DNA of 64,000 nucleotides from positions 1-64,000 of the IMG/VR virus record IMGVR_UViG_2839026242_000001; one strand, written 5' to 3'. Below the pieces are notes generated by a model, which searched no databases, was not told the origin of the DNA, and worked only from the letters and a program-made list of their open reading frames with translations. The translations under genes were made by a program, and so were the position numbers. The stretch comes from a virus. Its lineage: Duplodnaviria; Caudoviricetes. Shown piece by piece: positions 2,688 through 63,612 of this stretch. Positions within the stretch are counted from its first letter, which is position 1; the number at the start of each line of letters is the position of its first letter.

Positions 2688-3224
2688 TTGTTCACTCGCT
2701 TTCCAAATGAATTGTGAATTTCATTGGATTTCTTTTAATAACTCATTAGCAAAAAAGTGATGCCGTTTTGCCATAATCAATATCTGTTCGTTTAACGGCT
2801 TACCCTCAATCTCTTCAAGCGTTTTTTGTGTTAGTTCATTGCCCTCTAATGCACATGTAGATAATACTGCAATCCATTTATTTCTTAACTCCAACATCTT
2901 ACCAAAACCAATAGTGGCCATATAACACCTCATAAAGGGGAGTAGTTTATTCTGTCTTGTCTACCCATTTCAATACTTCAACCTTTTTAAGTTCAACCTC
3001 TACGCATTCCACTTCATCTTCATATTCCCACGGGCTTTCATCTTGCATCTCAGTTGCACCAATGCTGTAATAAGCACGATAAAACTTCCCTTGATATTCA
3101 AAAATGATTTTATGTTGAATACTCCATCGTGAATTACCTACAATCTCATCGAGAATTGCTGAATGCGGAAGATCAAGTTTGTTAATAAGAAAATCTTTTT
3201 TAAATCTAATAATTCTGGGTTTCA

Positions 3225-4130
3225 TTAATTGTCCTCCTTTAGAACAACTCCGTAACCTTGACAATGTTTACATTCAACATATGGTCTGTTGATTTCCGCA
3301 ATCAACTCCTGAAGATATGTATTAATTTTATTTTTCAAATCCTGTTCATTTTCGCCACTAAATTCTGTAGCAGGTTCGTAATCCTTTTTAACATCAGGAC
3401 TAATTTCTAATATCGTGATTTCTTTTGTATTTCTATAACGTTTAACAAAATTTGGCTTTCTTCTGGTTCCCTGATTTAAATTCACTTCATATTCAAACGG
3501 CTCATAGAGTTCAATTTTTTTCTTAACTCTAAATACAAAATCATAATCTGCATCAATTTTTGCATAACGTTGATCGATATTTTCTCTAATATATTTTCTA
3601 ATGATGTTAAAACTATCTTTTCGAGTCATTTTACATGGTTTTGTAGGTAGTAATACGGGGTGTGTATTTAGCAGATCAAGAAAATTATATTTAAGCTCAT
3701 ACTCTTGTTTGGTGATTTCAAACTGATCTAATTCCTCAATAATATTAATCTCAAATGGAATTTCTTCATAAGTTTCTTCTGTTAGTTCAAATTTCTTTTC
3801 ATATAATCCAATTACTTCAGCATATGGACTATCTTCGTCTATATATTTTTCATTGATGATTTTTGGAGTTAATTCACTTTCAGGAAACCCTGCTTTTAAC
3901 TCATATCTTTCATTAATCCTTTGAGGTGGCACTCTACGTTCGACTTTATTAGGAATTGACTTTAGTTCATACCATGATTTCTGATACGTCTCTTTTGGCT
4001 CTACTCCATCAAACAGATACTGCTTAATGCGCGAAGTATGATAATAAGAGTTTTCGATGTTATCTGAGATAAATACTTTTTCTTTTGTCTTGATAGCAAT
4101 TAGTTTTAATTTTGTTTGATTTTCTTTCAT
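3225..4130 (-). CDS. Hypothetical phage protein with C-terminal CxxCxGxG motif
   Basis: 301-aa ORF with GGAGG RBS; ends in CKHCQGYG. Confidence 0.75.
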   Translation of the reverse strand: MKENQTKLKLIAIKTKEKVFISDNIENSYYHTSRIKQYLFDGVEPKETYQKSWYELKSIPNKVERRVPPQRINERYELKAGFPESELTPKIINEKYIDEDSPYAEVIGLYEKKFELTEETYEEIPFEINIIEELDQFEITKQEYELKYNFLDLLNTHPVLLPTKPCKMTRKDSFNIIRKYIRENIDQRYAKIDADYDFVFRVKKKIELYEPFEYEVNLNQGTRRKPNFVKRYRNTKEITILEISPDVKKDYEPATEFSGENEQDLKNKINTYLQELIAEINRPYVECKHCQGYGVVLKEDN

Positions 4131-5061
4131 ATTAATCCTCCTGTGTTTTATTATTTTTGAATCAAAGGTGGATTTTAAAGAATTTTGTAAGCTGTGAATC
4201 TATTATGTAATTCAAGTACAAGATTTTGAATGTTTACTTTAAATTCTTTTAGATGAACAATTTGACCAATTATATATGCAATTCTTTGTCGCTTAGAATA
4301 ATAATCCTCATCTTTGATTAATACCTTATTGATTTCAAGGAAAATTGATTCTGAAACAGATTCTGCCAACTGCTCTTTCAATAAGCTTTCTTGGAGTTCT
4401 ATTTCTTTGATTAAATGTTGGACTGATTGAATTGCTTCCTCGCACACCTCTTTTAACTTTTCACCCATTTTATAACCCTCTCTTTCTTGTAAAGCAATAA
4501 TATAATTAATTCCATAATCTTCTTAAACAATCACCAACATAGTTAACCAAGGTCAGATTGTTTTTTGTTTCTTTTAGCCCTTTCCAAATTGGATAGGCAG
4601 GAAAATTATACTTTTTTCCCATATAACATAAAGCATCAATAAATCTTCTCAAATCGGCAATCATTTGTGGATTTTCCAAGTTGTCATACATATAATCAAC
4701 GATCATTTTTGCTAATCTTTCATCTGCTCTATACCCTCGAAGAGATTCATCGTCTACTTTAATTCCCCAACACTCAGCCAACTCTGACCAATCATAGCCA
4801 TTGAATTCAAATTCCTTACTCATGATACCTCCATTTTAATCTCTCTTTTTGAGCCATTTATAATACCCACATTTCTTACAAGCATAAGATCTTTCCTCGT
4901 TGCTCTCATAAATTAGAGACCATTTATGTATCCCTAGTGAACACAGGATATAAAACTTTTGAAATGGTATCATTTAATAGCTGCGCTCCAATAAAATTAA
5001 TTTGCTAAAGTCATTCCCTGAACTAATCCTTTACCAGTCCTTTCTTTGATAAGGCTATTTT

Positions 5062-7953: not shown

Positions 7954-8535
7954 TCATTCACCCCTTGTTGGAGGGTTTTTGTAATGTTGTCTACAAACAG
8001 ACTTGTAGACATCTTCAATGCCTAATTCAATAACCTTTCCAGTGTAGACAGGAATGCCATCTTTAAATTTAAGGATATGTGTTGCTTTTCGGTTACAATA
8101 GCTGCATACAGTTTTGATTTCCTCGATTTTATCTGCCATGCATAATATAGCCTGACTCCCTTTAAACAATTGATTTCTAAAGTCTTTGAGTAACCCATAG
8201 CAAATAACCGGAATATTAAGCCGATCTACAACTTCAGCAAGTTGTTGAATATGTATTGGATCAACAAATTGAATCTCATCCACTAATACACAGTCTGGCA
8301 TGTTTTCTTCTATTAAACTATAAACATCGGTTTTAGGCTGTATTGGAATTGCATCTCGACTAACCCCCACTCTTGAGGTAACTTTCCCCTTGCCAAAGCG
8401 AATGTCAATTTCAGGAGTAAACACCATAACTTTTTTGCCCGATTTTTCATAGTTGTGCGCAGTTGTTAATAGCAAAATTGATTTTGATGCATTCATCTGT
8501 CCATATTTAAAATATAATTTTGCCGTAAAAATCAC
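7954..8535 (-). CDS. tdk: Thymidine kinase
   Basis: YGQMNASKS P-loop, VDEIQF, YGLLKDF, Cys Zn ligands, CRQHY. Confidence 0.95.
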   Translation of the reverse strand: MIFTAKLYFKYGQMNASKSILLLTTAHNYEKSGKKVMVFTPEIDIRFGKGKVTSRVGVSRDAIPIQPKTDVYSLIEENMPDCVLVDEIQFVDPIHIQQLAEVVDRLNIPVICYGLLKDFRNQLFKGSQAILCMADKIEEIKTVCSYCNRKATHILKFKDGIPVYTGKVIELGIEDVYKSVCRQHYKNPPTRGE

Positions 8536-9781
8536 CTCTTATCACTTTAAATTTTATGAATTTGTTTATACTAGATGATATTGAATGTTTTTATTTTCTT
8601 TTATAATAAGATACTTTGAAAGTTCAGGTTCATCTTCTACTTCCATCCATTTTACGATTCCCTCATATGTATTAAGCAAGCCTTGAAATATTTCACCGCT
8701 TGCTGCCAAATGTTGTTTTAAATCATCAAATGTTGCTAGACTAGGGCTTTCGTCAATTGATAATGCATAGTCTAGGTTGTCTGTGACTAAAGAACTGCAA
8801 ATGCTGTCAGAATGATTATAACGGCAAAGATAAACTTGTTTAATCATTATTGTCATCCTTTCTCATTCATATTTTAAATATGTAAGCTGTTAATCAGCAA
8901 AGTGCAACTAAACCAATTGCTTGTTCATTCTTCATCAATACACTTTTTCTTTTTTTTATTTTGTTTTATTACTTTAAACCAGTCTCTATATGTGGCTAAC
9001 ATGCCAGCGATGCATATCACACATGTAAAGACTCCAGTAAATGCACTCGACTGTCCACCGATCATTAATCCTAGAGAAATGCCAATTCCAAAGCCCCAAA
9101 ATAAAAACATAGAACTGAAGAGAAGTATATACATTTTATTCATAGCCCCTTTAATTTCCGATTTGGCAGTATTTTTAAGTTTAAAGTTCACATTATGGCA
9201 TCTCTTGTTGTAGGCACTCTTCTCGTAAATCATAATCAAACTCCCATTGCTCAATAAGTTCACTTAGTATGTATGAGTCGATTGTTTTATTCTGTTTTAT
9301 GTTGTCATAGATAGCCATTTTCACTCTATTAAGCACATACTTATCTTTTGTCATAGATTGTCCCCTTTCTAATCAATTTGATTTTTATAGCAATTTAGAA
9401 AGTCTTTTTTCCAATCTTTTTCGTTTATTTGCAGATTGGTTGGCTTTTTGAATATGCCTCTTTTCTTCTTTTCGCAATAGTCTCAGTCGTCTAATAATAT
9501 CTTGGATTTCTGCTTCTAAATTATTTATAGTATCACGTCCTTTTTCGTTAAAACTAATATTTTATCGTGTCTTCCTGAGCGCTAGATAACAATCAATTTC
9601 CTTTTTAAATTTTTTATCTATGCTGTATTGAATACAACTAGACGCAATTAAGTTCATTATCATATCTTTAACTCTCTCTTTAGTTTCTATGCTCCCAAAG
9701 ATTCCATTTGCAATGGTAATTGCACATTCCTCTATTTGATTTAGATTCAATTTATTTCTCCTTTCTATATGTTATACAATT

Positions 9782-12425: not shown

Positions 12426-12459
12426 GTCGTTAAAAATTTGAACGAAATTCTGCTTTTAT

Positions 12460-13032
12460 TTAATTAATATGGACGGCCCGTGCCGCATTAATTTTAATAT
12501 CTTCTCCTATTTCAATAGAACTACCTGATTCATACACAAACTTAATGACATCTTTGTTTAACTGTTCAATATGCAATTTCATAATATCTCCTTCTTCGTT
12601 AAATGGTTCAAATTGAAAATATAAATCCAGTGGTGATACATTTATTGAATTTGTATTAAATGAGAGTTTGTTAATGACTTTTGCTTTTGGAATTTCATAA
12701 ATTACCTTTACATCATTCTCCGTGTCTGCATCTCGATAATATCCTATTGCGATTAATTTACAGTTCTTTGATTTGCTTTTATTAAATGTAATGGTTGTTG
12801 ATTGTTGACCAGAGTTCAGTATCTTTTGATAATCACTCAAAACAGGTTGTTCATTTTGTTTCCCGATAAACTTAAGTAAATCTTGATCTAATAATGCATC
12901 TTTGACAAACATTCCTGATTGAGTTCCATCAATCTGAATATGACTTTCTTTTAATGTCGTTAGATTTGCCACCAGATTTTCTTCTTCATCAAAAATCATT
13001 AAATCTACAACATCATGATTTCCGTATTTCAT
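12460..13032 (-). CDS. Hypothetical phage protein
   Basis: 190-aa ORF with GGGAGG RBS, bracketed by junction motifs at 12442 and 13059. Confidence 0.7.
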   Translation of the reverse strand: MKYGNHDVVDLMIFDEEENLVANLTTLKESHIQIDGTQSGMFVKDALLDQDLLKFIGKQNEQPVLSDYQKILNSGQQSTTITFNKSKSKNCKLIAIGYYRDADTENDVKVIYEIPKAKVINKLSFNTNSINVSPLDLYFQFEPFNEEGDIMKLHIEQLNKDVIKFVYESGSSIEIGEDIKINAARAVHIN

Positions 13033-14602
13033 AATTAATTCCTCCCATATATTTTTAAATCAAATACAATTTATATTGAAATTTTATCTGCCGTAACAGT
13101 TAATGCTCTGCTAATTGCTTCGGCAATGTCGCTTGCCAAAGTATTGGCATTTGCACTCACGTTAATTGTTAAATTGCTAATGCTTGATGTCGTTTCTTTG
13201 ATATTAAATTCTTTAAACAATTCATCCTTAGTTACGTTCTGATTTTCAAGTTCTTGTATATACCAAATTAAATCTTCTCTACGTTCTTTATCTAAAACAA
13301 GTATATCTGCAATTAAGTCTACAATTTTGTCATGACTTTTCCAGATGTCATCTGCGATATCTTCTTCGCGCTTATTCCAATATTCTTGACCTTGATTAAA
13401 TGTGAATACACAAATATCTACAAGTTTATCAATAATTTTATATGTATTAATATTAATCAACTCCTCATCAAAACATTTTTATTCAGATAGTTCTGCTCTC
13501 GGCTCATTGCAGTGAATCTCACTGTATTTCAAAGGATTCTTAGAAACTGCATCTGTTGTAGTGTAGTTATTGGTAAGATATGTCCAACCATTGAACTTAG
13601 GTTTATTCATTAGCTCATATTCCCGAACCAGCTTCACATAAATATCAGCCAACCTACTGTATTCTCCATAATGCCTTGCTTCAAGTTGTTTGTCCATTTC
13701 CTTTGACAGTTGTTCAATTTTCTTACGCAAATCTTCTTTAATTAACATTCTTACCTCTCCTTATTAAATAATTTTTTGATTAATGGAATTGCCCCTTCTG
13801 AAGAATAAGAAACCTCTCCACCTTTAACTCCTACAATGATCAAAATAGCACTGATAAATATTACTGTGTTAAGCAAAAACCAACCAAGACCACCAGTGAG
13901 CGTAATTTCTATATCAGGAAATGCAATCGAAAGAATTAAAGTTATTATGACAAACAGATATAAAATCCAATGATTTTTGAAATGATTCATTCCCACTTTC
14001 CTCCTAATAATTTTTACATTTAGATTGCTTGATTCTAAAACAATGGAAATGTTCACAGTCAAAGCCATCATGGGGATCTGTGTAAATATCTAACAATTTA
14101 CAATAGCCATCTCCAGTATAGCTACCTTCCTCGTCACCGTTAAAATTGTAATGGATGCAGAAATCGCAAATGGCACCCGTTTCTTTACAGTCTTGACTGC
14201 AATATTCAGCCATAACTTCAATCCTTTCTCTTTAAAATCATTGTTTGATCAGGTTTTCAAAAACCACTCAATCACTTCTTCTTTTGTAGCTTTTCTAAGA
14301 AAACTTAGGATTTCTGTTTTGCATTGATTACAGTGATTAATTTCGTTTTCGCAAATTAAATTAATAATGCCACATTTATTACACCTACTCCATAAGTATG
14401 CACCATTATCGAATTCTTTTTCAATTCTTTGTCGTTTGATATTTTTATATTGAATTAAATTAGTTATGTTTGAATTAATAATGTACATCACACCCTAGTG
14501 GTTTAAATTTTGTTATCAGGAGGCTATAATCCTCCCAATTATAGCCTCCGTTTTGAATATTACTCAGTTATGTATTTATTTTTTGTTTTATTTTAGATTG
14601 GT

Positions 14603-17841: not shown

Positions 17842-18265
17842 GAATCAAATCAAAGACAACTTTTATTCAGTTATCTTTAGAACCTTCAGATTGACACCTG
17901 CTGGAACAGTAATTAGATTAACCTTCTTTTCTAAGCCTTCATTAACCAAATCATGAATAGCCTTTGCTCGTTCAAAAGTCATTTCCTTGTCAATCTGTAA
18001 TACTAATGTATCGTTGGGTTCTAGATTTAGTTCACTATCAATAATGACTTCACCATTTTCATTTACAGTTTGTAGTTGATATTTCGCCATAAGAAATCAT
18101 CCTTTTCCCAATTAAGTGAAACCAATTTAAGACAGCTTTATTTAGTCTTGAGTAAGCCAATCAATATAATCATTAATACAATAAATCCAATTAGATGAAA
18201 ACAAAGCGTTTCTACTCCTATATGTATCACCTTCTGGTTATAGTGAAATTGAATCCACTATAACG

Positions 18266-24770: not shown

Positions 24771-26525
24771 TTTCTATTAAAGAACAATTTCATTCAAATC
24801 CAAACTTCCTCATTATAAGCTCTTCTCTTCCAGCAATAATGTTGCAAATACTATTGTCTATTGTAAATGCAATTGTTATGACTCCTAGCGCATAGGAGAT
24901 AATATGACAACCAATCTTAAATGATAGTTCCATTTTCTATAAACTCCTGATTTCATTCAGATTACTTCAATGATTTCTGACAAGCCAATGCAATATGTAT
25001 CATCATTACCATCAATAACATAGATGCTCGACTCATCTTTAATTCTAATAATCTCTCCAGTTCTTTCTTCATTCATCGAATACGCGCCCATGTTATCTAA
25101 AATTCTAATTCTATAAACGAACCTCACATAATCTCCGTGTTTTAGATTCAATCAAATATCCCTCCCAATCAAAGCGTTGCCTTATTCAAAGTATTCTTCA
25201 GGAATTTCATCAAACTTAAGCGGTAAACTACCTACATCGTGAAGCCATTCAATCCCATCATTGTTAAGCCATAAAAATTCAACATCTAGTGTATTATATT
25301 CTTGCATATATCGCACTAATTCGCTTTTTAAAATTTCGTGACTTTCATCAATTAATAAACCATTATTAAACAGACCTTCCCAATCGTCACCTTTGACAAG
25401 CCATAGTTTATTTTCCATATCTAATCTTTCCTTTCATTCAATACCTAATTGGGTACTGCTCCAAAGTATTGTCAATGATCTCTTTCATTCTTTGAATATT
25501 GGTCAATAGTCGATTATCGATGTCGTCATTATTAATTTTAGTTGTAACCCACCCATTCAATTTCTTGTCAGTAATCATCATTCTTGCTTCAGTTTCTTTA
25601 TCTTCGGATCGATTTAAGAATGAAATGCTAACTACCTTAATACCTTTTGCTTCATAATGATTACGAATTTCCTCAAGTTTGTCATTACTCAAAGCAGTTA
25701 ACAACTCATTAAGATTAGTAAATTTCTCATACTCCAAGAACTCTTCTTCATCTCCGTAATAACCAAAATCAACTTCATATTCAACAGTACCAATGACATT
25801 TTCTGTCTTTTTGTTAATGTTCATGATTTGATACCTCCTTAGACATACAAAGCATAAAATTCTTTTCTAATTGGCTTACGTTTAGTTTTGGGGATTGCTC
25901 CAAATACAACCGAAACACCATTATTATTTGTTTTGGTAACGCTACTTTCTTCTGTTAAATCTGAAAGATTAATTTCTTTTACCTCTCTATTTAAATCTGC
26001 TGGTCTTGAAAAGAAATCCATAGCAACACAGTTTTTAAATAGCCCAACCTCTTCTGCACTTGCAAATGTTACAGTTCGGTACTTTTCGCTATTAATTAAT
26101 TCAGCTTCCTTTTGTTTAATAAATTCACTTAGTTTCATTGCGTTTCTCCTTTCTATGAAAGAGTAATTTATTGAGATTTGCCACTCAGAAAACCAGCGTT
26201 ACTAAATCTGAAATATCTTTTACCAAAATGAATGTATATAAACCAATAACCGCAATCCATGAACCATCTAAATTGAAACAATTTACTTTTAAATATAAGA
26301 AATTCAAGTTCTCCGCATCCACATTCACATCTACTCATAATTTTTAATTTCATTTTGTCTTTACCCATTCCACATAATATAGCATCTTCACAAATCAATA
26401 CACAACATATTGTGGTGTCGAAAAATATATATCACTATATATCGTATTTATTAATAGACTTCTCTAGTAAATGATGGTATTATGTCTCTAGTGAGTAAGT
26501 AGACTGCTAGAATAGAGGTGGCAAT

Positions 26526-28747: not shown

Positions 28748-29142
28748 ATAAAATGACTGTTTCATTTAGATCAATTCTTGAACATCAATGTTGTACCGCT
28801 CAATAATTTTCTTACACAAGTCCTTCCATTCTTGACCCCATTTACGCGCATTTTCTAAAGCACCCCTGATATCTTCTATATCATCGTCAATTCGATACAA
28901 TTCACGGTTAATATCGTTAACCAAATCAATCAGATCATTTTCGCCCATATATTTTGCTTTACTTGTGCTCTTATAAACATCCTTTAATGTTTTGACAATG
29001 GTATTTATGTACTGACATTGATATTCTGGAGGATTAACGATTCCAAACAGATCTTCGGACATTTTCTTTTGATAAAACTCTTTGGCTTCTTCAATATTCA
29101 CTATTTCACATCCTATTTCCGTTTAAAGGATTGTTATATCGC

Positions 29143-29220: not shown

Positions 29221-29345
29221 TGAATCCAATTATTTATTGGATTTTTACATCCAATTTCTTGCTATGTTTCAAGCAAGCAACAGTCAAAATGACTGGGTGA
29301 AATAAGCACCTTCTACTACTTCACTCTAAGAGATCCGTAGATACT
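29201..29345 (-). ncRNA. Predicted TnpB omegaRNA (scaffold plus ~20-nt guide)
   Basis: Structured region after the tnpB stop: GGTG..CACC, CAGTCA-TTT-TGACTG, TTGCT..AGCAA and AATCCAAT-AAATA-ATTGGATT hairpins, ending in TTCA at 29221, an IS200/IS605 right-end-like boundary. Confidence 0.65.
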
Positions 29346-31144: not shown

Positions 31145-31182
31145 CCTATCATCTCCTATAATTTTTAAATAAAATTGCACTT

Positions 31183-39021: not shown

Positions 39022-39810
39022 TTATTGTAAATCTTTAAGCAACTTTTGATCAGTTAATTCATCATATGTGCTTTCAATGCGTTTATTTGCAATCTCTATG
39101 TATTTTGTTTCCGTTTCAAATCCAATAAACTTACGTCCTGTTTTTAATGCAGCTACTGCGGTGGTTCCAGATCCCATACAATTGTCTAAGACAATCTCAT
39201 TTTCGTTAGTATATGTTCGAATAAGATATTCAAATAGAGCTACAGGCTTCTGTGTAGGATGTTGTTTTTCTGCTCTATTCGCATTACTGAATTGAATAAG
39301 ATTCTTTGGGTAATATTCATTGTTCACTGATTCCACGCTATGAAAGTCACCATAATTTTCAGTGCCATTGCCTTTAATATATCCACCTTTTTTGCGAGGT
39401 TTACCTCTTACTTCCATCTGAGGATTATACGTGCATTGTTTTTTATAAAATACAACGATATCCTCAGTAACTCGAAGTGGTTGCTTTTTAGCATTTAAAA
39501 ATCCTGATGGATTCGCTTTATCCCATGTCCATGTGTATTTGAACCATTTCCTGTTGCTGTTAATCAAGTCACTAGTAAATGGTTGAGATGCAGTCAGTAC
39601 AATTGCACCATTGTCCTTAATGATTCGCTCGTATTGTTCCCACAGTTTATCCAACGGAATTACAGAATCCCATTTATTTTGCGTTGTACCATAAGGTAAA
39701 TCACAAAGGATCATATCAATATCGCCATCAGGAATTAGCTTCATACCTTCTAAACAATCCATTTGGTAAATGCGATTCAATTCAAGACTTCCTAGTAGTT
39801 CTTTATCCAA
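39022..39810 (-). CDS. N4/N6 DNA methyltransferase (beta class), paralog of 31183-32067
   Basis: DCL, CDLPYGTT, HPTQKP, LDNCMGSGTT. Confidence 0.93.
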   Translation of the reverse strand: MDKELLGSLELNRIYQMDCLEGMKLIPDGDIDMILCDLPYGTTQNKWDSVIPLDKLWEQYERIIKDNGAIVLTASQPFTSDLINSNRKWFKYTWTWDKANPSGFLNAKKQPLRVTEDIVVFYKKQCTYNPQMEVRGKPRKKGGYIKGNGTENYGDFHSVESVNNEYYPKNLIQFSNANRAEKQHPTQKPVALFEYLIRTYTNENEIVLDNCMGSGTTAVAALKTGRKFIGFETETKYIEIANKRIESTYDELTDQKLLKDLQ

Positions 39811-40189
39811 CTTATTTCCCCCTTACAATTTGCAATTTCCCTTATATGTTTTGATTAACTTATTGATATAGTTACGATCAATACGCTTTTCTCTCCACCA
39901 ATCAAAGTCATGCTTTAGCAATTGTGACTCCATTTTATTCTTTGGGCGCAAAACCGACCACTACATTTTCTAAATGAAATACCTTTTTAATTTTATTTGC
40001 TATACAACCGATGACTCCGTGACACATTCTGTATAGTTTCCATAAGTACTTCTTTAAAATCTGGCTGCTGATCTCGTGTCTTTGTGTTACTGTAGTATGT
40101 ATTGGATTTACGTTCTTGATGGAGTGATTTCGTATCTACTTTCATCATGACCCTCCTCTCTGTTTTCCTCTTGTTTTTAATTTACCATA

Positions 40190-46909: not shown

Positions 46910-46912
46910 CTC

Positions 46913-50571: not shown

Positions 50572-52023
50572 TTATATGTAATTAATCAAATTTTTAAATA
50601 CTGCTGTTATTTTATTCGTTGTTACCGCATTTCCAGCCATTTTATATAGTTGCGAATTGCTGATTCCTGCTTCAACTAACTTGTGATAATATTCATCAGG
50701 GAATCCCTGTAACCTAAAACATTCTAATGGGGTCAATTTGCGAATTCGATATTTTGGTTTTTCTAAAATCATACTATCCTTTGATACTGAAGTGATAGTA
50801 TTACTTACTGCATCACTTCTGATTTCTAACTGTTGCTCTTGTCCTTTATAGCTTCTGGTTCTAAAACTGCAGCTAAGATAATCATTGTCTTCTACAATAA
50901 TTTTGGGTTCTCGATTGCCACCTTCCATTGTTGTGATTGTCGGTGAAATTCCTTCTGGATCGTAAACCCTCCTTATGCATTCATTTCCTTTAATATCAAG
51001 AAGTCCCACCATAGCCAATTCTGGTTCTTTTACTAAATAAACTCCTCCACCACTACCACCAAGACCACCTGTTTGACTAGCAACGGTAGCTGAGATTCCA
51101 TTTGTGTCATAAACTCTATTACCCTGAGCGTTTTTATCTATGTATCCCACTTGTTGCAAATCAATTTCTACTACCTTTCGAGGTTCTTTATAATCTCTAC
51201 TTTGTAAAGTTGGACACATGTCACTATAAATCCGTAGACCGTCCATTCCTTTTGCCATTGGATCAATTATGCTTCTATCGGTTAGACTTTCTTGTTGCTT
51301 GCTTGTTAATTGTTCTAGAAGATTTCTTGTTTTTTCCTCACTTATGTAATACTTCTCATCAACATTATCCTCCAATATGTCTTTTATAATTTTATTTACT
51401 TTGTTCTGCTCAGGAAATTTAAAATTAAATGTTTTAATTCCATCTGCGTTTTTCAATTTTTTCTTCGCTTTTGCTACAATATCATTACCACTAATAATCC
51501 ATTCTTCAGCTTCAATATCTCTGAGTGCTACAATAATTATTCGCTCTCGATTTTGTGGAACGTCAAAATGTTTACTATTTATTACCTGAAAATCTACTAC
51601 ATATCCAATATCGCTTAATGTTAATAAGATTGTCTCAAGTGTACTTCCTTTATTGTGATTCACAAGACCTTTTACATTTTCTAAGATCAAAGCCTTTGGC
51701 TTCTTCTTACTTGCAATTCGCACAATCTCGAAGAATAGTGTCCCTCTTGTGTCTTCAAATCCTAGTCGTTTCCCAGCTACACTAAATGCCTGACAAGGGA
51801 ATCCTCCAACTAATACATCATGATCTGGTATATGTTCTGCTGAAATTTTTGTAATATCTCCATGAGGCTTAAATCCGTAAATTATTTCATATGCTTTGGT
51901 AGCGTATTTGTCAATTTCGCTTGCGAATACTACTTCAACATTTTCTCTACCAATTGCATTAAAAATACCTGTTTCAAACCCACCAATTCCACTAAACAAA
52001 GAACACACTTTAATTTTACTCAA
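50572..52023 (-). CDS. Multispecific C5-cytosine DNA methyltransferase (MtbP/M.SPR/M.phi3TI family)
   Basis: FSGIGG, GFPCQAFS, ENVKGL, QNRER, RKLTPLEC.RLQGFPD, GNAV; long variable region with tandem TRD-like units. Confidence 0.93.
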   Translation of the reverse strand: MSKIKVCSLFSGIGGFETGIFNAIGRENVEVVFASEIDKYATKAYEIIYGFKPHGDITKISAEHIPDHDVLVGGFPCQAFSVAGKRLGFEDTRGTLFFEIVRIASKKKPKALILENVKGLVNHNKGSTLETILLTLSDIGYVVDFQVINSKHFDVPQNRERIIIVALRDIEAEEWIISGNDIVAKAKKKLKNADGIKTFNFKFPEQNKVNKIIKDILEDNVDEKYYISEEKTRNLLEQLTSKQQESLTDRSIIDPMAKGMDGLRIYSDMCPTLQSRDYKEPRKVVEIDLQQVGYIDKNAQGNRVYDTNGISATVASQTGGLGGSGGGVYLVKEPELAMVGLLDIKGNECIRRVYDPEGISPTITTMEGGNREPKIIVEDNDYLSCSFRTRSYKGQEQQLEIRSDAVSNTITSVSKDSMILEKPKYRIRKLTPLECFRLQGFPDEYYHKLVEAGISNSQLYKMAGNAVTTNKITAVFKNLINYI

Positions 52024-52071
52024 TTAATCAACCTCCTAATTTTTATTTTTTAATTTCAATCAAACGATCTT

Positions 52072-53420: not shown

Positions 53421-53452
53421 GATATCACCTCCTATTTCCAATGAAATAGATT

Positions 53453-54169
53453 TTATATTGTAAATTTATCTAACCATTCCTTTATTTTTACAAACCTTTC
53501 TTGAGTGTATTTTGGATTTTCAGTTGTGAACCACACATCCCAATCTTTATTCCGTTTACTTGAATTGCAACTCTTACAAGCCAATATACAATTTTCAATT
53601 CCATTGCTTCCATCATTTATTGCATGATCCTTATGTAATTTATGTCCATACTTCTCGACAGATTCTTCCTCAGTGATTCCACAGTACATACAACTGCTAT
53701 TACAATATGCATATAATTCATTTAATTCTTCATCAGAAATGTCATGCTTCTTATGAAGTTCTCTTTCAATCCTATACTCTTTTAATTTTTCTCGATTATT
53801 TTGCCTCCAATCTTTTGTTAACTGCTTTATTCTTTCAGGATTATTATTAACCCACCTGTTGAATTTATCTTTATAGTACTGAACTTTATTTCTATAATTT
53901 TCTTTTGCATAAGCTTTTATTGCTTCTGGATTTTCATTTTGACGTATAATACTTTTAATTATTGCACATTGCTTACAACTAGGATGTAACCCATCAATTG
54001 AATTTGATTTATTTCTATAGAAATATTCATCTGTTGATGGAAACCAGTCACCACATTTATTGCACAGTTTATAATCTATTCCATTTAATGACTTGTGCGT
54101 TTCTTTATACTTCTTCAACTTCCGTTCAAGTTTTCGCCTGTCTTTTTCTTCTGGTGTTAATTTCGCCAT
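53453..54169 (-). CDS. HNH endonuclease with N-terminal Zn finger
   Basis: CNKC...EYFY...CKQC; CMYCG...DH...N...ACKSCNSSK. Confidence 0.88.
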   Translation of the reverse strand: MAKLTPEEKDRRKLERKLKKYKETHKSLNGIDYKLCNKCGDWFPSTDEYFYRNKSNSIDGLHPSCKQCAIIKSIIRQNENPEAIKAYAKENYRNKVQYYKDKFNRWVNNNPERIKQLTKDWRQNNREKLKEYRIERELHKKHDISDEELNELYAYCNSSCMYCGITEEESVEKYGHKLHKDHAINDGSNGIENCILACKSCNSSKRNKDWDVWFTTENPKYTQERFVKIKEWLDKFTI

Positions 54170-54217
54170 CGCATCCTCTCCCTAATTTTGATAAAAGCAA
54201 GTTTTCATTAAATATTT

Positions 54218-54502: not shown

Positions 54503-54545
54503 TGATAAACCTCCTTTTTCAATAAATGTAGTTTTTGATTGGATT

Positions 54546-57500
54546 TCAACCAAAATAATAATTTTCTACATCCTCAATTAATCGCAATGCTTTAGCTAAA
54601 AAATTTAATGCTTCATCCTTACTAATTCCTTGTAATGCTCTAACACCTTCTGGAGTTGTTTTAATACCTTTCTCAAAACGCCACTTAACTGTATAAGTGC
54701 CATTATCATCATTCACAATAAAACTATGTAGTAAGTCCTCTTTATGAGGATAATATCTTTTACCAACCCATGAAGCACTTTCTCTAATCTTATTGGCGGC
54801 TCTACGTGACATGACCACAATCTCACCATGACCGCTACAATTCATACAATAACAATTCAGCCCGTTTTCTTCTACATCTTGAACTGACCACCCGCCGTTA
54901 TTTCCCCAAGAGCCATCTTCATTCGTAGCAAAACATGCAGAGCAGAATGTAATCTTTTCATCTAAAGGATTCAAAAACTTTCACCTCCTAAAATCCAAGG
55001 AAAACATCATTTCATTGCAATCTTTCATATGTATAGGTCGGCACTCGTCTTGTTAACTCAGTGTCATAATTGTCGTATCCATCGTTATATACTCTGATAA
55101 CTAATTCGCCCTCAAAAATGAAGTCATTGCCATTATCAGTTTGAATAATGTCAACAAGCCTTTTCCCTTTAAAATGTTTCAATGCAATTTGAATATCTTT
55201 ATCATTTAACATACCATTTCTCCTTTCCTCATGAAATTATCCTTTTATTTGGTCTTTGGTACATACTCTACTATCTCAAACCTTTTAAACTCTTCATCAA
55301 ATGCTTTCTTAAACTCATCTGATCTTTGTGGAGCACAATAATCCAGATGACGAACAGCATCATACGCATAATCATTACACTCAGCAGTAATGACACTCTT
55401 TGCTGCACCAATCTTCAAATACGCAATCTTTCGCCCTGTTTTCTCCCATCGTTTACCATCTTTATGTATTACATAAATGCAATTATCTTTATTCATCCCA
55501 GTCATCCTCATCATCTTCACAATATAGAATTTGTAACTCTACTCGATTACTACCGTCTTCTAACGTGTGCCAGTGCCAGTTATAGTCGAATTGATCTAAT
55601 CCCAATCCATCAATTAACAAAAATCCTTCTTCATTTAAATGTAGATCAACTACAGCTTCCGCCCCTCCACCAAGATTCAACTTCACACCTTTTGCAATTG
55701 TTTGACCTATTCGTCCATGATTATTTAACATTCATTCTCCTCCTTTAGCTTTTCTAGCTTTCCTTAATCGTTCTGCCGCAGCTTTGCGCTGTTCTTCTGT
55801 CATATTACGCCCCTTACTTTCAGAACGAAATGAAATTCGCTCAAATGGTATATCCTTGTACCAATGCGCACCATCTTCTTGAATCTTGTAAGGCTCAATC
55901 CCTGCTCTTTTTAATTTTGTAATTACACGTTGTTGCCTTGTATAGATACTCCATGTTTTTGTTTCATCATCACAATGAATTGCCGTCTCACGTTCACATG
56001 CCTCTAGTGACATATGCATCTTTCCTCCTTTTCTTAAATTTCTACATCTGCAAACTTCTCCACAATTTCAAGTAGTCGTTGAAGTTCAGGATTCCTCCAG
56101 GCATGGTTAATAAAATAATCGGGTTGCTTATAATGATAGTGATTCTCTGTGACATGTTGATCCAATGCACGTTTTGTTAGAAAACAGTTTTTATATGTAT
56201 GCTCTTCTGTATAGCCTGTGTATGTTGAAAACTCATACCCAATATTTTTAAGAAAATCATGAAGAACTAAAAATGACTTTGATAACTTTACTTCCCACCA
56301 TTCGTCAATATCTTTCTGAATTAGATCCTCTAGATAATCCTCGCACCACTCAATTGCCTCATTGAAATCAGTAAATAAAATATAATCTTCGCTCAGAAGT
56401 ATACAAGTTTTATCGGCATAGTCTGGGTCAATACCCACAACATTCTTCTTTTCACGAATCTGATAAAATACTGGTTTAGCAGTATACTCTCTGTCTTGTG
56501 TTTTTAATTCAATTGCTAAGTCTTTAAGAAACTTAATATCATCATCAGTCAGTATATTCATTTGTGCCTCCGTTGTTCTTATTTAATTCAAGTAATTCTT
56601 GATGCGAGTCTAGCCACTTACTTACATCATCTATATATTTCTTTTGTTCTTCAGTCATTTCTTGCTCTGTATCGCTAAGATTATCACTGCCCTCAATCAT
56701 CTCGTTTGCTTTAGGATGCCAATCATTGTTTTTATCCACTTGTGCATCTCCCCTTTGTATAAATTCCTTCTTTCATTCAGTTAATTTATCTATTTCTTGA
56801 ATAATGAAATGTTTAAAATCTTCAAGTGGCTTCATGTCATAATATGTCATCCAATCATGTTCTCCACTTACATCATAAATTACAAACCAATTAGGATAAT
56901 TGTAGTTTGACTTATCAAAGAGTGCTTGGTGATATCCATCATCTAGCCTTTCAATCCATTCCTTCACTTGGTTTTCGTTCTCAAAATAGTAAATTTTAAC
57001 ATCATAAGGGAGGAACACTTGACGTTCTTTAATTTTTAATTTAAATTCATGATCTTCTGCTTGACTTGGATTATAAAATTCAGAGCCATCTAATGTAACC
57101 CAAATATCCACTTCTTTTGTCCCAACCTGAACTTTTTTCTCTTCATAAATTGGTATTTGTTTGCTTTTCTTTTCCATTAAAAATTACCTCCATTTTTAAA
57201 TCAAATCGTACATTCATCGAAATTTCATGAAGCCCAAAATAAAGTCTGCCAACTCATACAAATCATCATCATTCATTTCTTGAAAGTCATCCAGACTCAT
57301 TGTTCCATAATCAAATGCTTCCTTTACTCGTGTCAGATTATATGTATAAGTACCATCTTTCCAATTGAATCCGAAGTATTCAGCGAGTTTTGAAACCAAT
57401 TCTTCGCGTTCTTTATTATCGTCTTGCCGATATTCAGGCACAATTTGCAATTGTACCGATGTATATGTTCTGCTGCTATTTGCATTAAGGTGATCCTCGC

Positions 57501-59322
57501 ACTCACGAATGAATGATTGAAGTTCTTTTTTCTGCTCTTCGGGTTTTGAATGCAAATCCATGCATCCATAGTTTTGTTTCACATATCCTTCCAGCCTGTA
57601 ACCCTCAATTACTTTATCCATGTTACCTCCAGTTATTTTTAGTTAAAAGCATTCTTTAATTGGATTTTGTGCTTACCTCAATCAAAGCTACCTCTTCGCC
57701 TTCGTAATACCATGTCTTATATGAAATCAAGTTACCAACACTAAGATCTAATTCTGGGTGGTATTCCCTTACATATTGAACAAATCCACCACACATTACT
57801 GACTCATTTCCGTGACAAGCCCAATTATGACCACTTTTCTTCTTCATTTGAATAATGTCATACGCACTAGGAAGGCAACCATAAGTTTTGAACTTCTTCT
57901 GATTCATCAGTGAATGCAAATGGGCAAGTTGCGCAACCATCAAAACCACAACTTGCTGTTTTCTCCATTTATTCAACCTCCTCTCTGTATAAAAGATTTA
58001 TTATAATGATTCAACTGTTTTGGTTGCTGCCTTACATATTGCTTTTGGCGTTACTGCCGAAAATGCATTGGCTCCTACTTCAAGTAACATCCATGTATTA
58101 AAATGTCGTTTTTGTTCATTGCTCTTATTAATTTCCTCCATTACTTGCCAAGCATGATCAATTCTTTCGGTCGGCTGCCAATCTCTGACCCATTCCATGA
58201 AATCACCTTGATCGTCATACCAAGCGTCAGCAATATATGCACCATCTTCTATGTACTTACCTTTTGACCACCCCATCACCTTTGTTGCCAGCGTTCCAAC
58301 GATTTGCTGTTCGGTCACTTCTACCATAATACATACCTTCCCTCATTGCAGTATAATAATTTTATCGCAACCCTAAAGATTCCAACATTTTACCCATATC
58401 TGAATTTGTAAGTGATGGGTAATAGTCATCTGCAATCTCAATATTTAACCGCTCCAATGCTTCAATTGCTTCATTAAAAATTCGCTTCATTTCATTGTTC
58501 TTTACATAAACTTCCCCACCACCATCAATGCAAAAACGTCTGTTCTCATCATTCAGTCGTTCTAAAATACTATTTATGAATCGTCTATCAAAGCTGTATT
58601 CTCGATATCCACCAAAGGACAAAAGGATTTTTTCAGACACTTGATTGTCTGAATATACAGGTCGATACAAAACTACTTTTTGTTTTTCCTCTTTACGATC
58701 TTTACCATATTTAATCATAATGTAGTCATTATCTAGCATAGTTTCAGTTGTATAATATGTATGTTCTTTTTCTAGGCGTTTTCTCTCATTGATAAACTCC
58801 CTTTGGTCTTCTGATAAACTATTCCACCAGTCATCGTGCAATTTCTTGAAATCAACCATAGAATCAATCCCCTTTACTTTTTCAATCAAACACGTCTTTT
58901 ATTCAAAGCACCCAGTTAATCTTATCTTTAATCAGTAGCAATACAGTCTGAAATTCAGTAGCATTATTAAAGCTGGCACAGCCAAACATACTATTCCTGA
59001 TCTGCTTCTGTACTTCACTAGGTAACACTTTAATAGCCTTTCCGTCTCGTTCTTTATCAAGGAATAAATGCGCCTCAAAATTGCTTACATAAGGAGACTG
59101 TAGCAGACCGTAATCATAAGCAACCAATACAGTCTCAAGATTCTTTCTGCAAACTCGGAAGACCTTTAATTCGCCTGAATTAACATTGTAATATACATAA
59201 GGCTTATTATTTTTATTTTCAATTTCCCTATCAAAATCGATTTCTTTAATCATGTTTACTTCAACTGGAATCATTCTGATGATTTCTTCAAGCGTATTTG
59301 CAGACGTTGCCGTTTTCGTCAT
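54546..59322 (-). other. Array of ~12 small hypothetical phage ORFs, mostly delimited by the junction motif
   Basis: Co-oriented 64-175-aa ORFs with RBSs; motifs at 54522, 54998, 55231, 56759, 57200, 57643 and 58885. Confidence 0.75.
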
Positions 59323-59703: not shown

Positions 59704-60535
59704 TTTTTTATTTTTAAAACTTATCATGACTTACTCATTGTATACTGTCTTACATAATAACTACATCTATAATTTAATCGCTCAATTACAAAATCTACAT
59801 CCAATTTTCTATTATTTTTGATATGATTTTTGTTTTCACATATAACCTGCAAACCTTGAATAACTCCATATTTACAGTTTTCACAGCGTTTCCTTGGAGG
59901 CCAAGACACCATCTCATCTCCTTATTCAACAAACTCGCAATCACTTTTGCTTACCCATCCATAAGGCCATCCAGCTTGTTCAATGGTTGTCCTTACAATT
60001 AAGTTGTTTCTGTTTCGACTGCATTCACTATGTACTATAAATTCTTGACCGATCTTATCTGCATACCAATTTTGATGATGGTCAGAGGAAATAATTTTAA
60101 TCTTCTTCCCACATAATTCACTCATCTTCATCGCCCGTCCCATTCACAAGAATATTCTTTTAAAAACTCCAGTTTGCACGATCCAGTTACTGAGTTCTCA
60201 GTAGGTACAACGATAATTTTACTGCCATTTTTGAATTCAATTTCGATATTATTATTTTTCATTTCTAAACTCCTTTTTGCGATAAATTCACTATTTTATG
60301 GAATCCCAACTTAGGTTTTCCGAAGTTACATTGAATACATTAACCAGATCGTCCGGTTGTAAAGTCTTAATACTTCCGTCATTTTGTACAACCGTAGCAT
60401 ACTCGCTATCCGGGTTATAACCTAAACCGTATCTCTCTGCCGCAGCTTTAACAATTTGCTGAATATCTTTCCTCATACTAATCACTCCACGAAAACCGTA
60501 TTTTAGGTCGAATAGTGTACTCTGTATCAGGGTGT

Positions 60536-60762: not shown

Positions 60763-61186
60763 AATCACTTCCCCTTTTTCCTATGAAATTGCCATTTTAT
60801 TCAATCTCTTCTTCGTAAACATCTTCCAACTCTAACGGTTCGCCTTCTTCAATTACCTCCAATTGAACCATGAGTTCTCCCACATCATCACAAAACAAGT
60901 CATGCTCATACCAAGGAAGATGTCTAGAATATTCATAAAGCCATTCTTTATTGTGCACTTTACATGCTTCTTTAAATGCTTCATCCCAACCAAATGTACT
61001 TTCAATGTATATATAAAAATTTATGTAATCTATGTATTCTGTTGGTTTAAATATTTTGACTAGATTATTGTGAAAATCAATTAGCAGTTCTTTTGTGAGT
61101 TGATTTCTTATTCCATCAGGCATTTGATACTCATATCCATTTTCAGTTACAGGCATTATCCAACCTCCTAATAAATTTTACATTTA

Positions 61187-61402
61187 TCAGTACCCACCTT
61201 GAGTTTCTAGCAGCCATTCTTTAAACAAAACATGTGCTTTTGCAAACACATAATCCATGTCGCAATTCTGAACGTTAACGATTGTCTCTCCATGACGATT
61301 AATTGTAATGCACCAGTCCATAATACCTGAGTAATAAATTTCTAAAGTATATCTACCTGTCCTGTGTTTTATTTCATTAAAGAATCTCAGAAACTCTTCC
61401 AT
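61187..61402 (-). CDS. Hypothetical phage protein
   Basis: 71-aa ORF bracketed by motifs at 61171 and 61423; paralog nearby. Confidence 0.75.
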   Translation of the reverse strand: MEEFLRFFNEIKHRTGRYTLEIYYSGIMDWCITINRHGETIVNVQNCDMDYVFAKAHVLFKEWLLETQGGY

Positions 61403-63612
61403 ACCAACAGTCTCACCTTCCGTTAATATTCGTGATTTATTTAGTTTTCTTGCTCCCCTTGATTACAAATAACCGTTATCCATCCACCTTCAACACGTAC
61501 TTCTTGACCAGTATTACTATAATCATCACTATCTTCAGTCCATTTAATTCCTATGTAATACACCGTTTCTGAGTTACTGAGAAATTCAATGTGCGTGATA
61601 TCATTATATTCTTTGATTCTCTGGTACTCTGGTTTATCTTTAATTATTAGATATAAATGTTTTGCGGATTTACTCAATAATAGCTCTGATTTATTGTTCA
61701 ATAGTATATTGTTGTCCCATATAGATTCAGTAATTCCAGCTAGACTAATGTATCTTACATCACTATACGGTATTTTTATATGTTCTACATTTTCAAATAC
61801 TACATGAATCTCATCAATTTCTTTATTGATTGTATGCATTTATATCTACCTCTCTTTTTGAATATAATACATATTTAATCCAATTCCTTTAATTCAGGAA
61901 AAATTTCTTCGAGATTTACTTCTTCTCCATTCAAATAGATTCCCTTAATATTTTCATCAAATGTCACTTCGAACCCAAGTTGTTTTCCAATATCAATCAT
62001 ACGCTTCTTTTCTTCATCAGTTAACATTTTCTCACTCCCAATGAATGACAGATTTCATTCCCTTTCTGGAACGCCAAACTCATCAATAAGAACTTTAGCC
62101 AATCTTTTAGATGATTCCTTAATCTTTTGTTGTAAGAAATCATGGAAATAATTCATAACTTCATCACTTGGATGAACAACACCTTTGCTAATCAGAAATT
62201 GTTTAATTTCTTCCTTCAAGTCCATTTTATAAAACCTCCATTATTTTTATATAAAAAGTATCTTTTAACGTGAATATTTTTCTGGAAATTTTAATTTAAA
62301 GCTACTCAAATCAAGTTTCTCAACAATATCATCACATATAGCGTAAGCTGGCAAATTCAAATGAATTGCATCGTGCTTAATATGTGCTCCGTCTCTAAAT
62401 GGAAGGTCTATTTCTCCATCTTCACCAATAGGAGGTTTCGTTCTTCCTGTTTTCCTTTCTGTTTGCCCAATCGTTACTTTTACAATATCTCCTGTAAAAT
62501 GTTTATACACTAGCTCGTATTTCCAAAGTTGTTCAGTATAATCTCCACTGACATTGATACATTCAATTTGTAATCTTGGAAGAGATGCTTCATTTAAAAT
62601 TTCTTCTGGACTCATTTCGTTCTCACTCATCCTTTCCGATAAAAGTATCTGTTTATTATGTAAATAACCGTCTTGCAAGTTCAATTTCGTCATTTATAAA
62701 ATTTCGCTATTTGTCATACTTTTTAAAGCGTCTCGTATCGCTCTTCGCTTTTGATTCTGCGCTTTAATAATTCTCGCAGCATTCTCTACATGGTAATCAC
62801 AAAAACCTTTCCGCCAATCTTTAATCATCGCATATTCATTCATTTCAAGATTTTCTCCATTAAACTGTAACTGCACATCTGTATGGTTAATTTCACCCTC
62901 GGCAACCAGTACTCGTACATAAGAAATGATGTTTTCTGTTGATACGTTGTAAGTATAAGGCTCTTGATTTCGAAACCATAATCGCACTATTTTTTCGGCC
63001 TCAAAATCGGAGCAAGAAACACCTTGAGGACAATAGTTAATTGTAATCATCGGTTCACCACTTTCTAGAAAATATATCTACAACGTACTGGTATGTAAAC
63101 TGTGTCCGTTTGCCCCATATACCTTCCTGCTGGTAAATCCTGCACCCCAATCTCAGTTTCCATTTTAATGTCACCAATTATATACTCGATGTCAACGAGT
63201 TTCTTTAGTTCTTCCTCTGTAATTGTTTTGGTGCAATATGTTGTCTTATTAATAATGGGATTCAATGCCTCGTCAACCAGCATCATGGTGAACAATATTG
63301 TTCCATCGTGCGAACTAGAGCGAATGACCTGATAATCATAATCCTCATTAACAGCTTGATCGTACTTAATATGACCGAGAACTAGATTCTTGCCGTATCC
63401 ATTACTTTCTAAAATGCTTGAAATATACTCAATTGGGTTAATTACTGTTTGTTTACTCATGACATCACTCCTTTCCGATAAAAATCTCATTTCAATAACT
63501 TATGTATAGTGTTTCCCATCTTCTGTAATCTTCTGAATTAAGAATACAACATATATTTATATTTGTCTACTATTTATTTTTATTTTATATCCACAATTTT
63601 AGCCACCCGTTC

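Follow-up and report, generated by a model that had tools for sequence, protein, structure and literature searches.

Known junction elements and the element described here

In T4-type phages, hyperplastic regions of small non-essential genes carry promoter-early stem-loops (PeSLs), short conserved intergenic elements that bound insertions, deletions and replacements. According to the available text of PMC2839356, each PeSL combines a sigma70-like promoter with a terminator stem-loop, and PeSLs recombine with one another and give rise to mini-circles. Here we describe a different intergenic element from an SPbeta-like phage, an 18-bp dyad that we call the junction site. Its two arms are common to all copies, and its 6-bp centre is private to each copy; many of the centres recur in a close relative at the same place. 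The element was studied in 64,000 nucleotides of virus record IMGVR_UViG_2839026242_000001 (positions 1 to 64,000), hereafter the window, which is the first 64 kb of contig C5 (136,134 bp, 33.8 % G+C). We refer to a centre at its place in the genome as an address and to the DNA between consecutive addresses as a slot. The junction sites resemble PeSLs in their role as module borders, in that replacement and indel boundaries between relatives coincide with the elements, though not exclusively. They differ in being 18-bp dyads, too short for a -35/-10 pair, with neither promoter nor terminator, in having private centres, and in that only copies at the same address appear to exchange.

The core site of the Xer/dif system consists of two arms around a 6-bp centre, and pdif sites have two different 11-bp arms for the host recombinases XerC and XerD. 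In Acinetobacter plasmids, accessory genes flanked by such short recombinase core sites form pdif/dif modules that occur in different backbones (PMC6449649, available text). The window likewise has accessory genes between two-arm sites with a 6-bp centre, but here the 6-bp arms are identical on both sides, the sites are phage-borne and number more than 40 per genome, and their centres form an ordered set of unique sequences. Classical tyrosine-recombinase arms are about 9-13 bp long. Compared with such core sites, the junction sites have the fixed 6-bp centre and an identical overlap in both partners (1.00 over 12 pairs), but their arms are too short. Integron attC sites are much longer imperfect palindromes whose inner and outer repeats pair; it is the folded single strand that is recognised, and one site can stand in for another. 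The window shares with integron arrays mostly promoterless small genes in one orientation, imperfect inverted repeats between them and the proposal of a tyrosine recombinase. Unlike attC, the junction site ends after 18 bp (identity in its flanks is 0.32-0.33), is not interchangeable by virtue of its centre, stands in a fixed order and has no adjacent platform.

Stoperators are asymmetric sites that follow the direction of transcription and are the targets of a repressor; they are not known to have unique conserved centres or any connection with gene replacement. The arms of the junction site, in contrast, are symmetric. Stoperators of Cluster A mycobacteriophages are short sites present in dozens of copies in short intergenic gaps of a temperate genome, and Cluster O mycobacteriophages have a 17-bp palindromic repeat, 5'-TGTTCGGNNNCCGAACA, in about 34 copies, with deletions ascribed to recombination between repeats and a function described as unknown (both PMC4351075, available text). 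Like the Cluster O repeat, the junction site is a dyad with a free centre, and many of its copies occupy the short gaps between genes transcribed in one direction. The Cluster O repeat differs in its 3-nt centre and in that about a third of its copies lie inside genes, and the available text of the same source reports no slot-specific conserved centre (PMC4351075).

SPbeta itself has a repeated element called SPBRE, a 15-bp motif at about ten promoters that is the operator of MrpR (YopR), a protein with a tyrosine-recombinase fold (PMC10516654, available text). Both SPBRE and the junction site are repeated intergenic elements of SPbeta-like phages, and a homologue of MrpR is encoded by the phage studied here as well. 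We recovered the SPBRE core in nine of the ten named SPbeta upstream regions, within the promoter; it is unrelated to the dyad site, and its few occurrences on C5 are scattered, with no established promoter among them. An identity of the junction site with the SPBRE/MrpR operator was rejected as the sequences are different. The novel part of the junction site is its addressing, with one private, conserved centre per slot. We found no published description of this site in SPbeta-like phages in the literature searched, which did not include the original SPbeta genome paper (Lazarevic 1999).

The junction motif

A first-pass annotation of the window had reported a motif, ATVAA-N8-TTBAT, recurring at gene boundaries, and this motif turned out to be real. 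The window contains 26 matches, against a mean of 5.41 (standard deviation 2.26, maximum 11) in 100 dinucleotide-preserving shuffles, none of which reached 26. The five examples quoted in that annotation (2707, 27440, 32089, 58885 and 60783) are all present at these positions. The count of 22 strict copies rose to 26, while the overall number, given as more than 45, came down somewhat to roughly 30-40 real copies. The enrichment had been expected to persist when AT richness and stop codons were controlled for, and it does so for the 8-nt spacer only. With AT content and stop-codon content kept constant, every other spacing from N0 to N20 gave 0-12 matches, and those in the same codon phase (2, 5, 11, 14, 17 and 20) gave 0-5. 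The location between genes also held, as 23 of the 26 strict copies have at most six coding bases beneath them in a window of which non-coding DNA makes up 22 %. Among the exceptions, the copy at 34266 has nine coding bases at the end of an open reading frame (ORF), and those at 35565 and 61813 lie wholly within ORFs.

The best form of the motif is AT-N-AAA-N6-TTT-N-AT, with 18 bp and six free bases in the centre. Allowing up to one mismatch, this pattern had 44 intergenic matches compared with 3-13 at control spacers of 3, 4, 5, 8 and 9; a spacer of 7 gave 32 matches, a number inflated by one-base slips in A/T runs. One of the 44, at 46822, lies within a 478-aa ORF (45473-46909) and was dropped. 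On the whole of C5 there are 35 exact 6-6-6 sites against 3-9 at other spacers, and a looser pattern has 45 copies on C5 and 68 in the other 4.5 Mb of the assembly. The architecture of two inverted arms around a 6-bp centre of fixed length, the only spacing enriched, is of the tyrosine-recombinase type, as had been proposed.

The genes are on the minus strand, and the usual order is stop codon, site, 0-22 nt, ribosome-binding site (RBS) and start codon. Among 86 strict copies collected from five phage sequences, 47 have a stop codon upstream and an RBS downstream, and in 20 of these 47 the stop codon falls within the left arm. A further 18 have the stop codon only, several of them directly before a terminator hairpin, and seven have only an RBS, after a terminator. 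The others have neither (11), RBSs in both orientations (two) or a stop codon on both sides (one). Several copies thus separate a stop codon from a terminator hairpin, or follow a terminator and precede the leading gene of an operon, which does not fit the earlier proposal that the unit is a promoterless RBS-ORF-stop cassette. A function as promoter or translation enhancer was rejected because of the 18 copies with no RBS downstream, those directly before terminators and the variable distance to the RBS. Three of the four single genes said to lie between two sites do so (31183-32067, 54218-54502 and 56773-57177); for the fourth, 60797-61156, the downstream copy at 60783 is strict but the upstream copy is a variant one base short. 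The replication-gene core between 39026 and 54190 has no strict copy, in agreement with the earlier remark that core junctions lack the site.

Each arm has five fixed positions, with a weak preference at the first base of the centre, and nothing is conserved outside the 18 bp. At the free arm positions, 3 and 16, the bases used on the left (A40/G30/C26/T21) mirror those on the right (T42/C39/G23/A13), which is the expectation for two equal half-sites on duplex DNA. There was no pairing covariation between these positions (51 pairable combinations against 46.7 expected, and 24 against 26.2 when sites were oriented by gene). With mirror-image use and no covariation, the half-sites behave as independent, equal units. 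A conserved RNA or single-strand hairpin is not supported, and the RNA hairpin reading was rejected for lack of covariation. We noticed also a weak extra T/C-T preference followed by a stop codon, 5 nt upstream of the left arm, at many sites of the window and of the SPbeta group. It is possible that the site extends a little further upstream and is asymmetric there.

Private centres and shared addresses

The 44 window sites have 44 different centres, with no palindrome and no pair of reverse complements among them; the whole of C5 has 45 strict sites, again with 45 distinct centres. We compared 63 window sites with 36 sites in 37.1 kb of a related viral contig, G061, whose polymerase is 89 % identical. 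Twenty centres matched exactly, all 20 were colinear and none was in the opposite orientation. When the letters of the G061 centres were shuffled, the mean was 1.05 matches and the maximum six in 2000 trials. In 12 pairs compared without gaps, the site forms an island of conservation, with identity of 1.00 in the centre (72 of 72 positions), 0.96 at the fixed arm positions, 0.32-0.33 in the flanks and only 0.29 at the free arm positions. These data show a slot-specific constraint on the centre but not on the two free arm positions. An enzyme tolerating mismatched cores, as suggested before, does not agree with centres that all differ within a genome and are kept perfectly and in order between relatives.

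The DNA between the shared addresses is largely unrelated. In 14 of the 19 slots between consecutive shared addresses we detected no tblastx (E<=1e-3) or blastn similarity, and the lengths differ, for example 948 versus 202 nt and 902 versus 561 nt across the same addresses. The methyltransferase gene 31183-32067 is the content of one slot, and G061 has unrelated DNA between the same two addresses. The slot bounded by the sites at 31169 and 28748, which contains a 425-aa ORF (29326-30603, minus strand), also has unrelated content in G061. In a further copy (about 52041-52060, upstream of gene 52023..50572), the centre is shorter by one base than in the corresponding G061 site. An MtbP-like cytosine methyltransferase gene (42 % identity to SPbeta MtbP) comes next; G061 lacks this gene and has a terminator after the site. 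This copy may be a damaged joint next to an insertion.

The sites of the window are listed below. Here strict denotes the pattern of the first-pass annotation, exact and 1 mismatch refer to AT-N-AAA-N6-TTT-N-AT, and the strand is given as "." throughout.

63478..63495, strand., junction site; 1 mismatch; just upstream of the RBS of gene 63460..63065
62639..62656, strand., junction site; strict
62251..62268, strand., junction site; 1 mismatch
62041..62058, strand., junction site; centre shared with G061 27995
61862..61879, strand., junction site; 1 mismatch; centre shared with G061 28279; metagenome-contig homology stops 4 nt beyond
61423..61440, strand., degenerate junction site; metagenome-contig homology stops at the centre/arm border (61429); same centre at G061 29125 (by-eye comparison)
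60783..60800, strand., junction site; exact
60282..60299, strand., junction site; strict
58885..58902, strand., junction site; exact; identical 18-mer in G061 at 30669
57643..57660, strand., junction site; 1 mismatch
57200..57217, strand., junction site; strict
56759..56776, strand., junction site; centre shared with G061 32515
55231..55248, strand., junction site; exact; homology of two metagenome contigs begins 6-7 nt beyond
54998..55015, strand., junction site; 1 mismatch
54522..54539, strand., junction site; in a metagenome contig, 27-nt island 54513-54539 with unrelated DNA on either side
54191..54208, strand., junction site; exact
53441..53458, strand., junction site; 1 mismatch; could be chance
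39974..39991, strand., junction site; exact; centre shared with G061 44520; 7 nt from the right end of a 10-kb conserved core block
39008..39025, strand., junction site; exact; centre shared with G061 44740
37439..37456, strand., junction site; exact
36368..36385, strand., junction site; 1 mismatch; centre shared with G061 46405
35797..35814, strand., junction site; 1 mismatch; centre shared with G061 47142
35512..35529, strand., junction site; 1 mismatch; centre shared with G061 47344
35315..35332, strand., junction site; exact; centre shared with G061 47689
34908..34925, strand., junction site; exact; centre shared with G061 47910
34266..34283, strand., junction site; strict; 9-nt overlap with an ORF end
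32589..32606, strand., junction site; exact; centre shared with G061 50356
32350..32367, strand., junction site; exact
32089..32106, strand., junction site; exact; centre shared with G061 51051; upstream border of the methyltransferase slot
31169..31186, strand., junction site; exact; centre shared with G061 51630; downstream border of the methyltransferase slot
28748..28765, strand., junction site; exact; terminator hairpin next; centre shared with G061 54219
27950..27967, strand., junction site; 1 mismatch; centre shared with G061 54462
27440..27457, strand., junction site; centre shared with G061 54620
26155..26172, strand., junction site; 1 mismatch
24939..24956, strand., junction site; strict
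24776..24793, strand., junction site; exact with free arm position
17849..17866, strand., junction site; exact; terminator hairpin next; centre shared with G061 61287
14232..14249, strand., junction site; 1 mismatch
13059..13076, strand., junction site; 1 mismatch; centre shared with G061 64034
12655..12672, strand., junction site; 1 mismatch; could be chance
12442..12459, strand., junction site; 1 mismatch; centre shared with G061 64286
9548..9565, strand., junction site; 1 mismatch; same centre at G061 71273 (by-eye comparison)
8471..8488, strand., junction site; 1 mismatch; could be chance
4161..4178, strand., junction site; 1 mismatch
2707..2724, strand., junction site; strict

Joints in the SPbeta group and in metagenome contigs

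For a comparison at base level we used 13 kb of SPbeta and the phages phi3T, SPR, Goe11, Goe12 and Goe13. At six SPbeta sites (113663, 115043, 116414, 118469, 118866 and 120075) the 18-mer is kept in the relatives and the left and right flanks are variously combined. Site 116414 has two left and three right variants in four combinations (U1D1, U2D2, U1D3 and U1D2), and site 118469 two left and four right variants in five combinations (U1D1, U2D2, U1D2, U2D3 and U2D4). Identity changes within 0-2 nt of the site edges. Rare arm variants travel with the adjacent flank in all five informative cases, which places the exchange between the arms. Mapping of a laboratory crossover at SPbeta site 113663 in the phi3Ts-SPbeta hybrid Hyb2 gave no information, the two parents being identical for more than 700 nt downstream of the site.

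Assembled contigs from four DNA runs of metagenomes were aligned to the window. One of them has a perfect 27-nt island at 54513-54539, after which the next 715 nt of the window are replaced by 1493 other letters; the joint runs from 54539 to 55255, and the match resumes 7 nt past the site 55231-55248. Another contig matches only the gene 61429-61883, and its homology ends at the centre/arm border of a degenerate site on one side and 4 nt past a site on the other. We found no circle junctions and one replacement joint among these assembled contigs, which cannot show rare forms.

Taken together, the data show that related phages have recombined repeatedly inside the 18-mers. The expectation that replacement breakpoints would fall at the motif was borne out for the joints of the SPbeta group, of G061 and of the metagenome, but many other breakpoints are located elsewhere.

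Distribution of the motif and the candidate recombinase

The motif is a feature of a clade. Exact copies number 12 in the Alicyclobacillus phage KKP_3916 (0-2 at other spacers), 26 in G061 (0 for the reversed pattern) and 46 in G062, whose polymerase is 72 % identical (0 for the control). In Bacillus sp. T33-2, about 25 of the 61 copies of the genome are in the prophage region. SPbeta has 14 exact copies against 1-6 in the control, or 82 against about 48 with one mismatch allowed, and many of its copies are just upstream of the RBSs of early genes. Five more distant phages with the same polymerase family showed no clear enrichment of exact copies (copies versus control: Sundance 5 and 1, Amboise 0 and 0, MTATph1 2 and 1, phiT1 0 and 0, G064 15 and 5).

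The recombinase had been supposed to be encoded outside the window, and two genes with a tyrosine-recombinase fold are indeed found further along the same contig, YopP-like at C5:115109-116113 and MrpR/YopR-like at C5:68337-69365. The Phage_integrase matches on C5 (115265-115738 and 68712-68996) are not beside the arrays of the window. The YopP-like protein has Phage_integrase (Pfam, E 6e-13) and SAM-like domains, and in an alignment with SPbeta YopP and YomM the residues R160, K187, H244, K247, H270 and Y279 are shared, to be compared with the catalytic set R-K-H-R-H/W-Y; the nucleophilic Tyr is retained. A YopP-like gene is present in KKP_3916, G062, the T33-2 prophage and SPbeta, that is in all four near-complete motif-bearing phages examined. 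In SPbeta lysogens yopP is reported to be transcribed (bioRxiv 10.1101/2021.11.22.469490, available text), and the available text of PMC8612738 assigns no function to YopP. Domain content and co-occurrence make a YopP-family enzyme a candidate for acting on the sites.

The MrpR homologue of C5 matches solved MrpR/YopR chains with E of about 1e-28. Beside this full-length gene there is a second, truncated paralogue, a 300-aa ORF on the opposite strand of the window (16895-17797, plus strand) with only the C-terminal MrpR_C_cat domain (E 1e-17) and no N-terminal core-binding domain.

The phage and its other genes

By gene content C5 is a distant relative of SPbeta, and the label SPbeta-like given in the first-pass annotation holds on this basis. 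The window has a gene for a SprA-like large serine recombinase (106-1731, minus strand) with Resolvase, Recombinase and zinc-ribbon domains and 25 % identity to SPbeta SprA/YokA. Its location at the very start of C5 suggests that the contig begins at a prophage end or attachment region. A YotM-like gene follows at 2043-2687. Polymerase, helicase, primase and nrd genes are also encoded on C5, as are homologues of YopQ (69369-70679), YopR and the YonO RNA polymerase (55 % identity). The closest public phage by polymerase is KKP_3916, with 59 % amino-acid identity, which is reportedly temperate, as termed in the title of its paper. A megablast search of the phage collection with 12 kb of the window gave no matches. 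Searching 61 genomes of the host's family with the polymerase retrieved only host DnaE-like genes with 32-37 % identity.

Several other observations were made on these genomes. The rest of the 4.6-Mb assembly has about 53 % G+C and its other large contigs 46-55 %, so that the gap to the 33.8 % of the phage contig is unusually large for a temperate phage and its presumed host. Two adjacent ORFs near the border of the conserved core (52714-52983 and 53453-54169, minus strand) resemble the SPbeta HNH endonuclease YoqL (43 % and 37 % identity). In KKP_3916 (OQ846916.1 57945-64442) the polymerase III alpha matches come in four pieces over 6.5 kb annotated as six hypothetical proteins, and the gene is probably interrupted by introns, inteins or endonuclease genes. 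In SPbeta (NC_001884 110881-111100) the annotated start of yorM is upstream of both an SPBRE promoter core (110912) and a junction site (111028), with a good RBS and start codon after the site; the annotated start is probably too far upstream.

What the junction sites may do

We consider the chances to be about even that the 18-bp sites are addressed recombination joints, splitting the accessory regions of an SPbeta-like phage into exchangeable slots. The centres are unique in each genome, are the best-conserved part between relatives and are colinear, and for these reasons the data point to an exchange that is confined to matching addresses of two related genomes and replaces alleles in a fixed slot, as opposed to a shuffling of genes inside one genome. 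Given common arms, private centres, uniqueness and conservation across genomes, the simplest design would be a set of heterospecific site-specific recombination sites with the centre as overlap region, and the 6-bp overlap makes a tyrosine recombinase the natural enzyme class. Two related genomes would meet in one cell, either in a co-infection or when an incoming phage finds a resident prophage. A phage-encoded protein would bind the common arms at both copies of one address, and strands would be exchanged across the 6-bp centre, where a match is required, so that crossovers would take place only in register. Two such crossovers would replace the genes of one slot, the free arm positions 3 and 16 would move with the adjacent module, and the unique centres would prevent deletions and inversions within the phage's own genome. 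The likeliest enzyme would be a tyrosine recombinase, with the YopP-family gene as candidate. In its fullest form, which we put forward tentatively as possible but short of probable, SPbeta-like phages would possess a genome-wide coordinate system of 40 to 100 heterospecific sites, with arms common for one phage recombinase and a private 6-bp overlap per slot, allowing trade in single slots in register without scrambling their own genome.

A number of observations weigh against addressed exchange by a recombinase. About 20 of about 25 distinct block ends in the SPbeta group, as counted from the alignment blocks, are at gene boundaries or within genes with no site, several ends of aligned metagenome contigs are within genes, and the left end of the core block shared by C5 and G061 (window 50012) has no site either. 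Five of the 19 slots are partly similar, with a mix of shared and unshared genes. Addresses are common only to the closest relative, G061; beyond it, sharing was not above chance (0 for the part of G062, one for the part of T33-2, 0 for KKP_3916, and four and two for SPbeta, with shuffle means of 0.3-2.1), and therefore address sets may drift or define exchange groups. The recombinase step is our inference and its enzyme a candidate only. The second catalytic Arg is replaced by Lys (K247) in the YopP family, invariantly in the three aligned sequences, and five fixed positions per arm are few for a recombinase-binding element. A full-length YopP-like gene (E 8e-27) also occurs in the Brevibacillus phage Sundance, which has only five exact motif copies against one in the control, and all phages with both the motif and YopP are mutually related, so that their co-occurrence is not independent evidence. 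The reading gives no reason why individual phages should keep their centres intact. Finally, 18 bp of identity could equally serve homology-dependent annealing.

This last point leads to the main rival, which we regard as rather unlikely. Here the sites would be conserved linkers with another main job, such as binding of a dimeric regulator, and joints would arise by short-homology recombination through a phage single-strand annealing protein or RecA, as the sites are the sole sequence common to otherwise unrelated modules. Exchange in register is accounted for in this way, nothing but the 18-mer and another 0-9 nt is shared, and symmetric arms without covariation suit a dimeric DNA-binding protein. 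A possible annealing protein is present, as the window encodes a Sak4-like AAA_24 protein (47623-48768; a weak match of 23.5 bits, below the cut-off) and SPbeta YorG is annotated as a Sak4-like annealing protein. When phi3Ts and SPbeta were crossed in the laboratory, the hybrids had recombined in regions of homology at 15 of 16 sites (bioRxiv 10.1101/2020.05.06.055103, available text); the single non-homologous one, after yosA, might be an 18-bp site. PeSL-mediated shuffling in T4-type phages provides a precedent (PMC2839356, available text). However, the free arm positions are random-like between C5 and G061 (0.29), which leaves only about 12 bp of uninterrupted identity, very short for homology-dependent pathways. 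A regulator that reads only the arms would not explain perfect centres (72 of 72 positions) amid replaced surroundings, and recombination by short homology accounts neither for the shared arms nor for perfect centres beside free positions that interrupt the identity. As for MrpR, its peaks in SPbeta by chromatin affinity purification sequencing (ChAP-seq) are reported only at SPBRE promoters (PMC10516654, available text), the sequence of which differs.

We find it improbable that the sites serve regulation alone and coincide with gene replacement only incidentally, either as repressor operators or roadblocks like stoperators, or as RNA processing or translation signals upstream of the RBS. Dyad symmetry and the many copies in short gaps of co-directional early genes, 0-22 nt before the RBS, would fit, and the 17-bp palindromes of Cluster O mycobacteriophages have been interpreted likewise (PMC4351075, available text). 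Nevertheless, unique centres kept perfectly while both flanks are replaced are unexpected for an operator, and a stoperator-like function was demoted on this ground. The stop-only copies, several of them before terminators, count against a role in translation initiation or as promoter, the distance to the RBS is variable, and the pairing covariation expected of an RNA hairpin is missing. An integron-like system, in which any site recombines with any other and single-gene circles are re-inserted or shuffled behind early promoters, seems to us extremely improbable, even though single genes lie between two sites and the design of a short core between inverted arms would fit. No two centres of the genome are the same, the 20 shared ones are colinear with none inverted, and the 18-bp site is not attC-like. 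There is no integrase, attI or promoter platform beside the arrays, although features specific to IntI were not examined. No circle junctions were seen in the assembled contigs, nor did relatives show the same cassette at different addresses. What survives of the integron-like cassette idea is that the sites bound exchangeable gene units and that gene replacement stops at them; the analogy with integrons, with its insertion, excision and shuffling, is not supported.

How tailed phages become mosaics joined at gene boundaries has long been asked, and the two classic answers are random illegitimate joining followed by selection, and exchange at conserved linkers. The model family of SPbeta, phi3T and related phages, among them the Alicyclobacillus-associated phage studied here, has short, countable joints that mark the exchange of gene blocks and have addressing built in. 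As Bacillus subtilis 168 carries SPbeta, the idea is directly testable. If addressed recombination is true, it would represent a dedicated, enzyme-driven form of phage mosaicism, distinct from both illegitimate and general homologous recombination. An enzyme-driven process would also assign a role to the orphan tyrosine recombinases that SPbeta-like phages conserve and would explain the fast turnover of accessory genes such as methyltransferases, nucleases and counter-defence genes. Dozens of natural recombination sites, each orthogonal to the others, would then be at hand in these phages.

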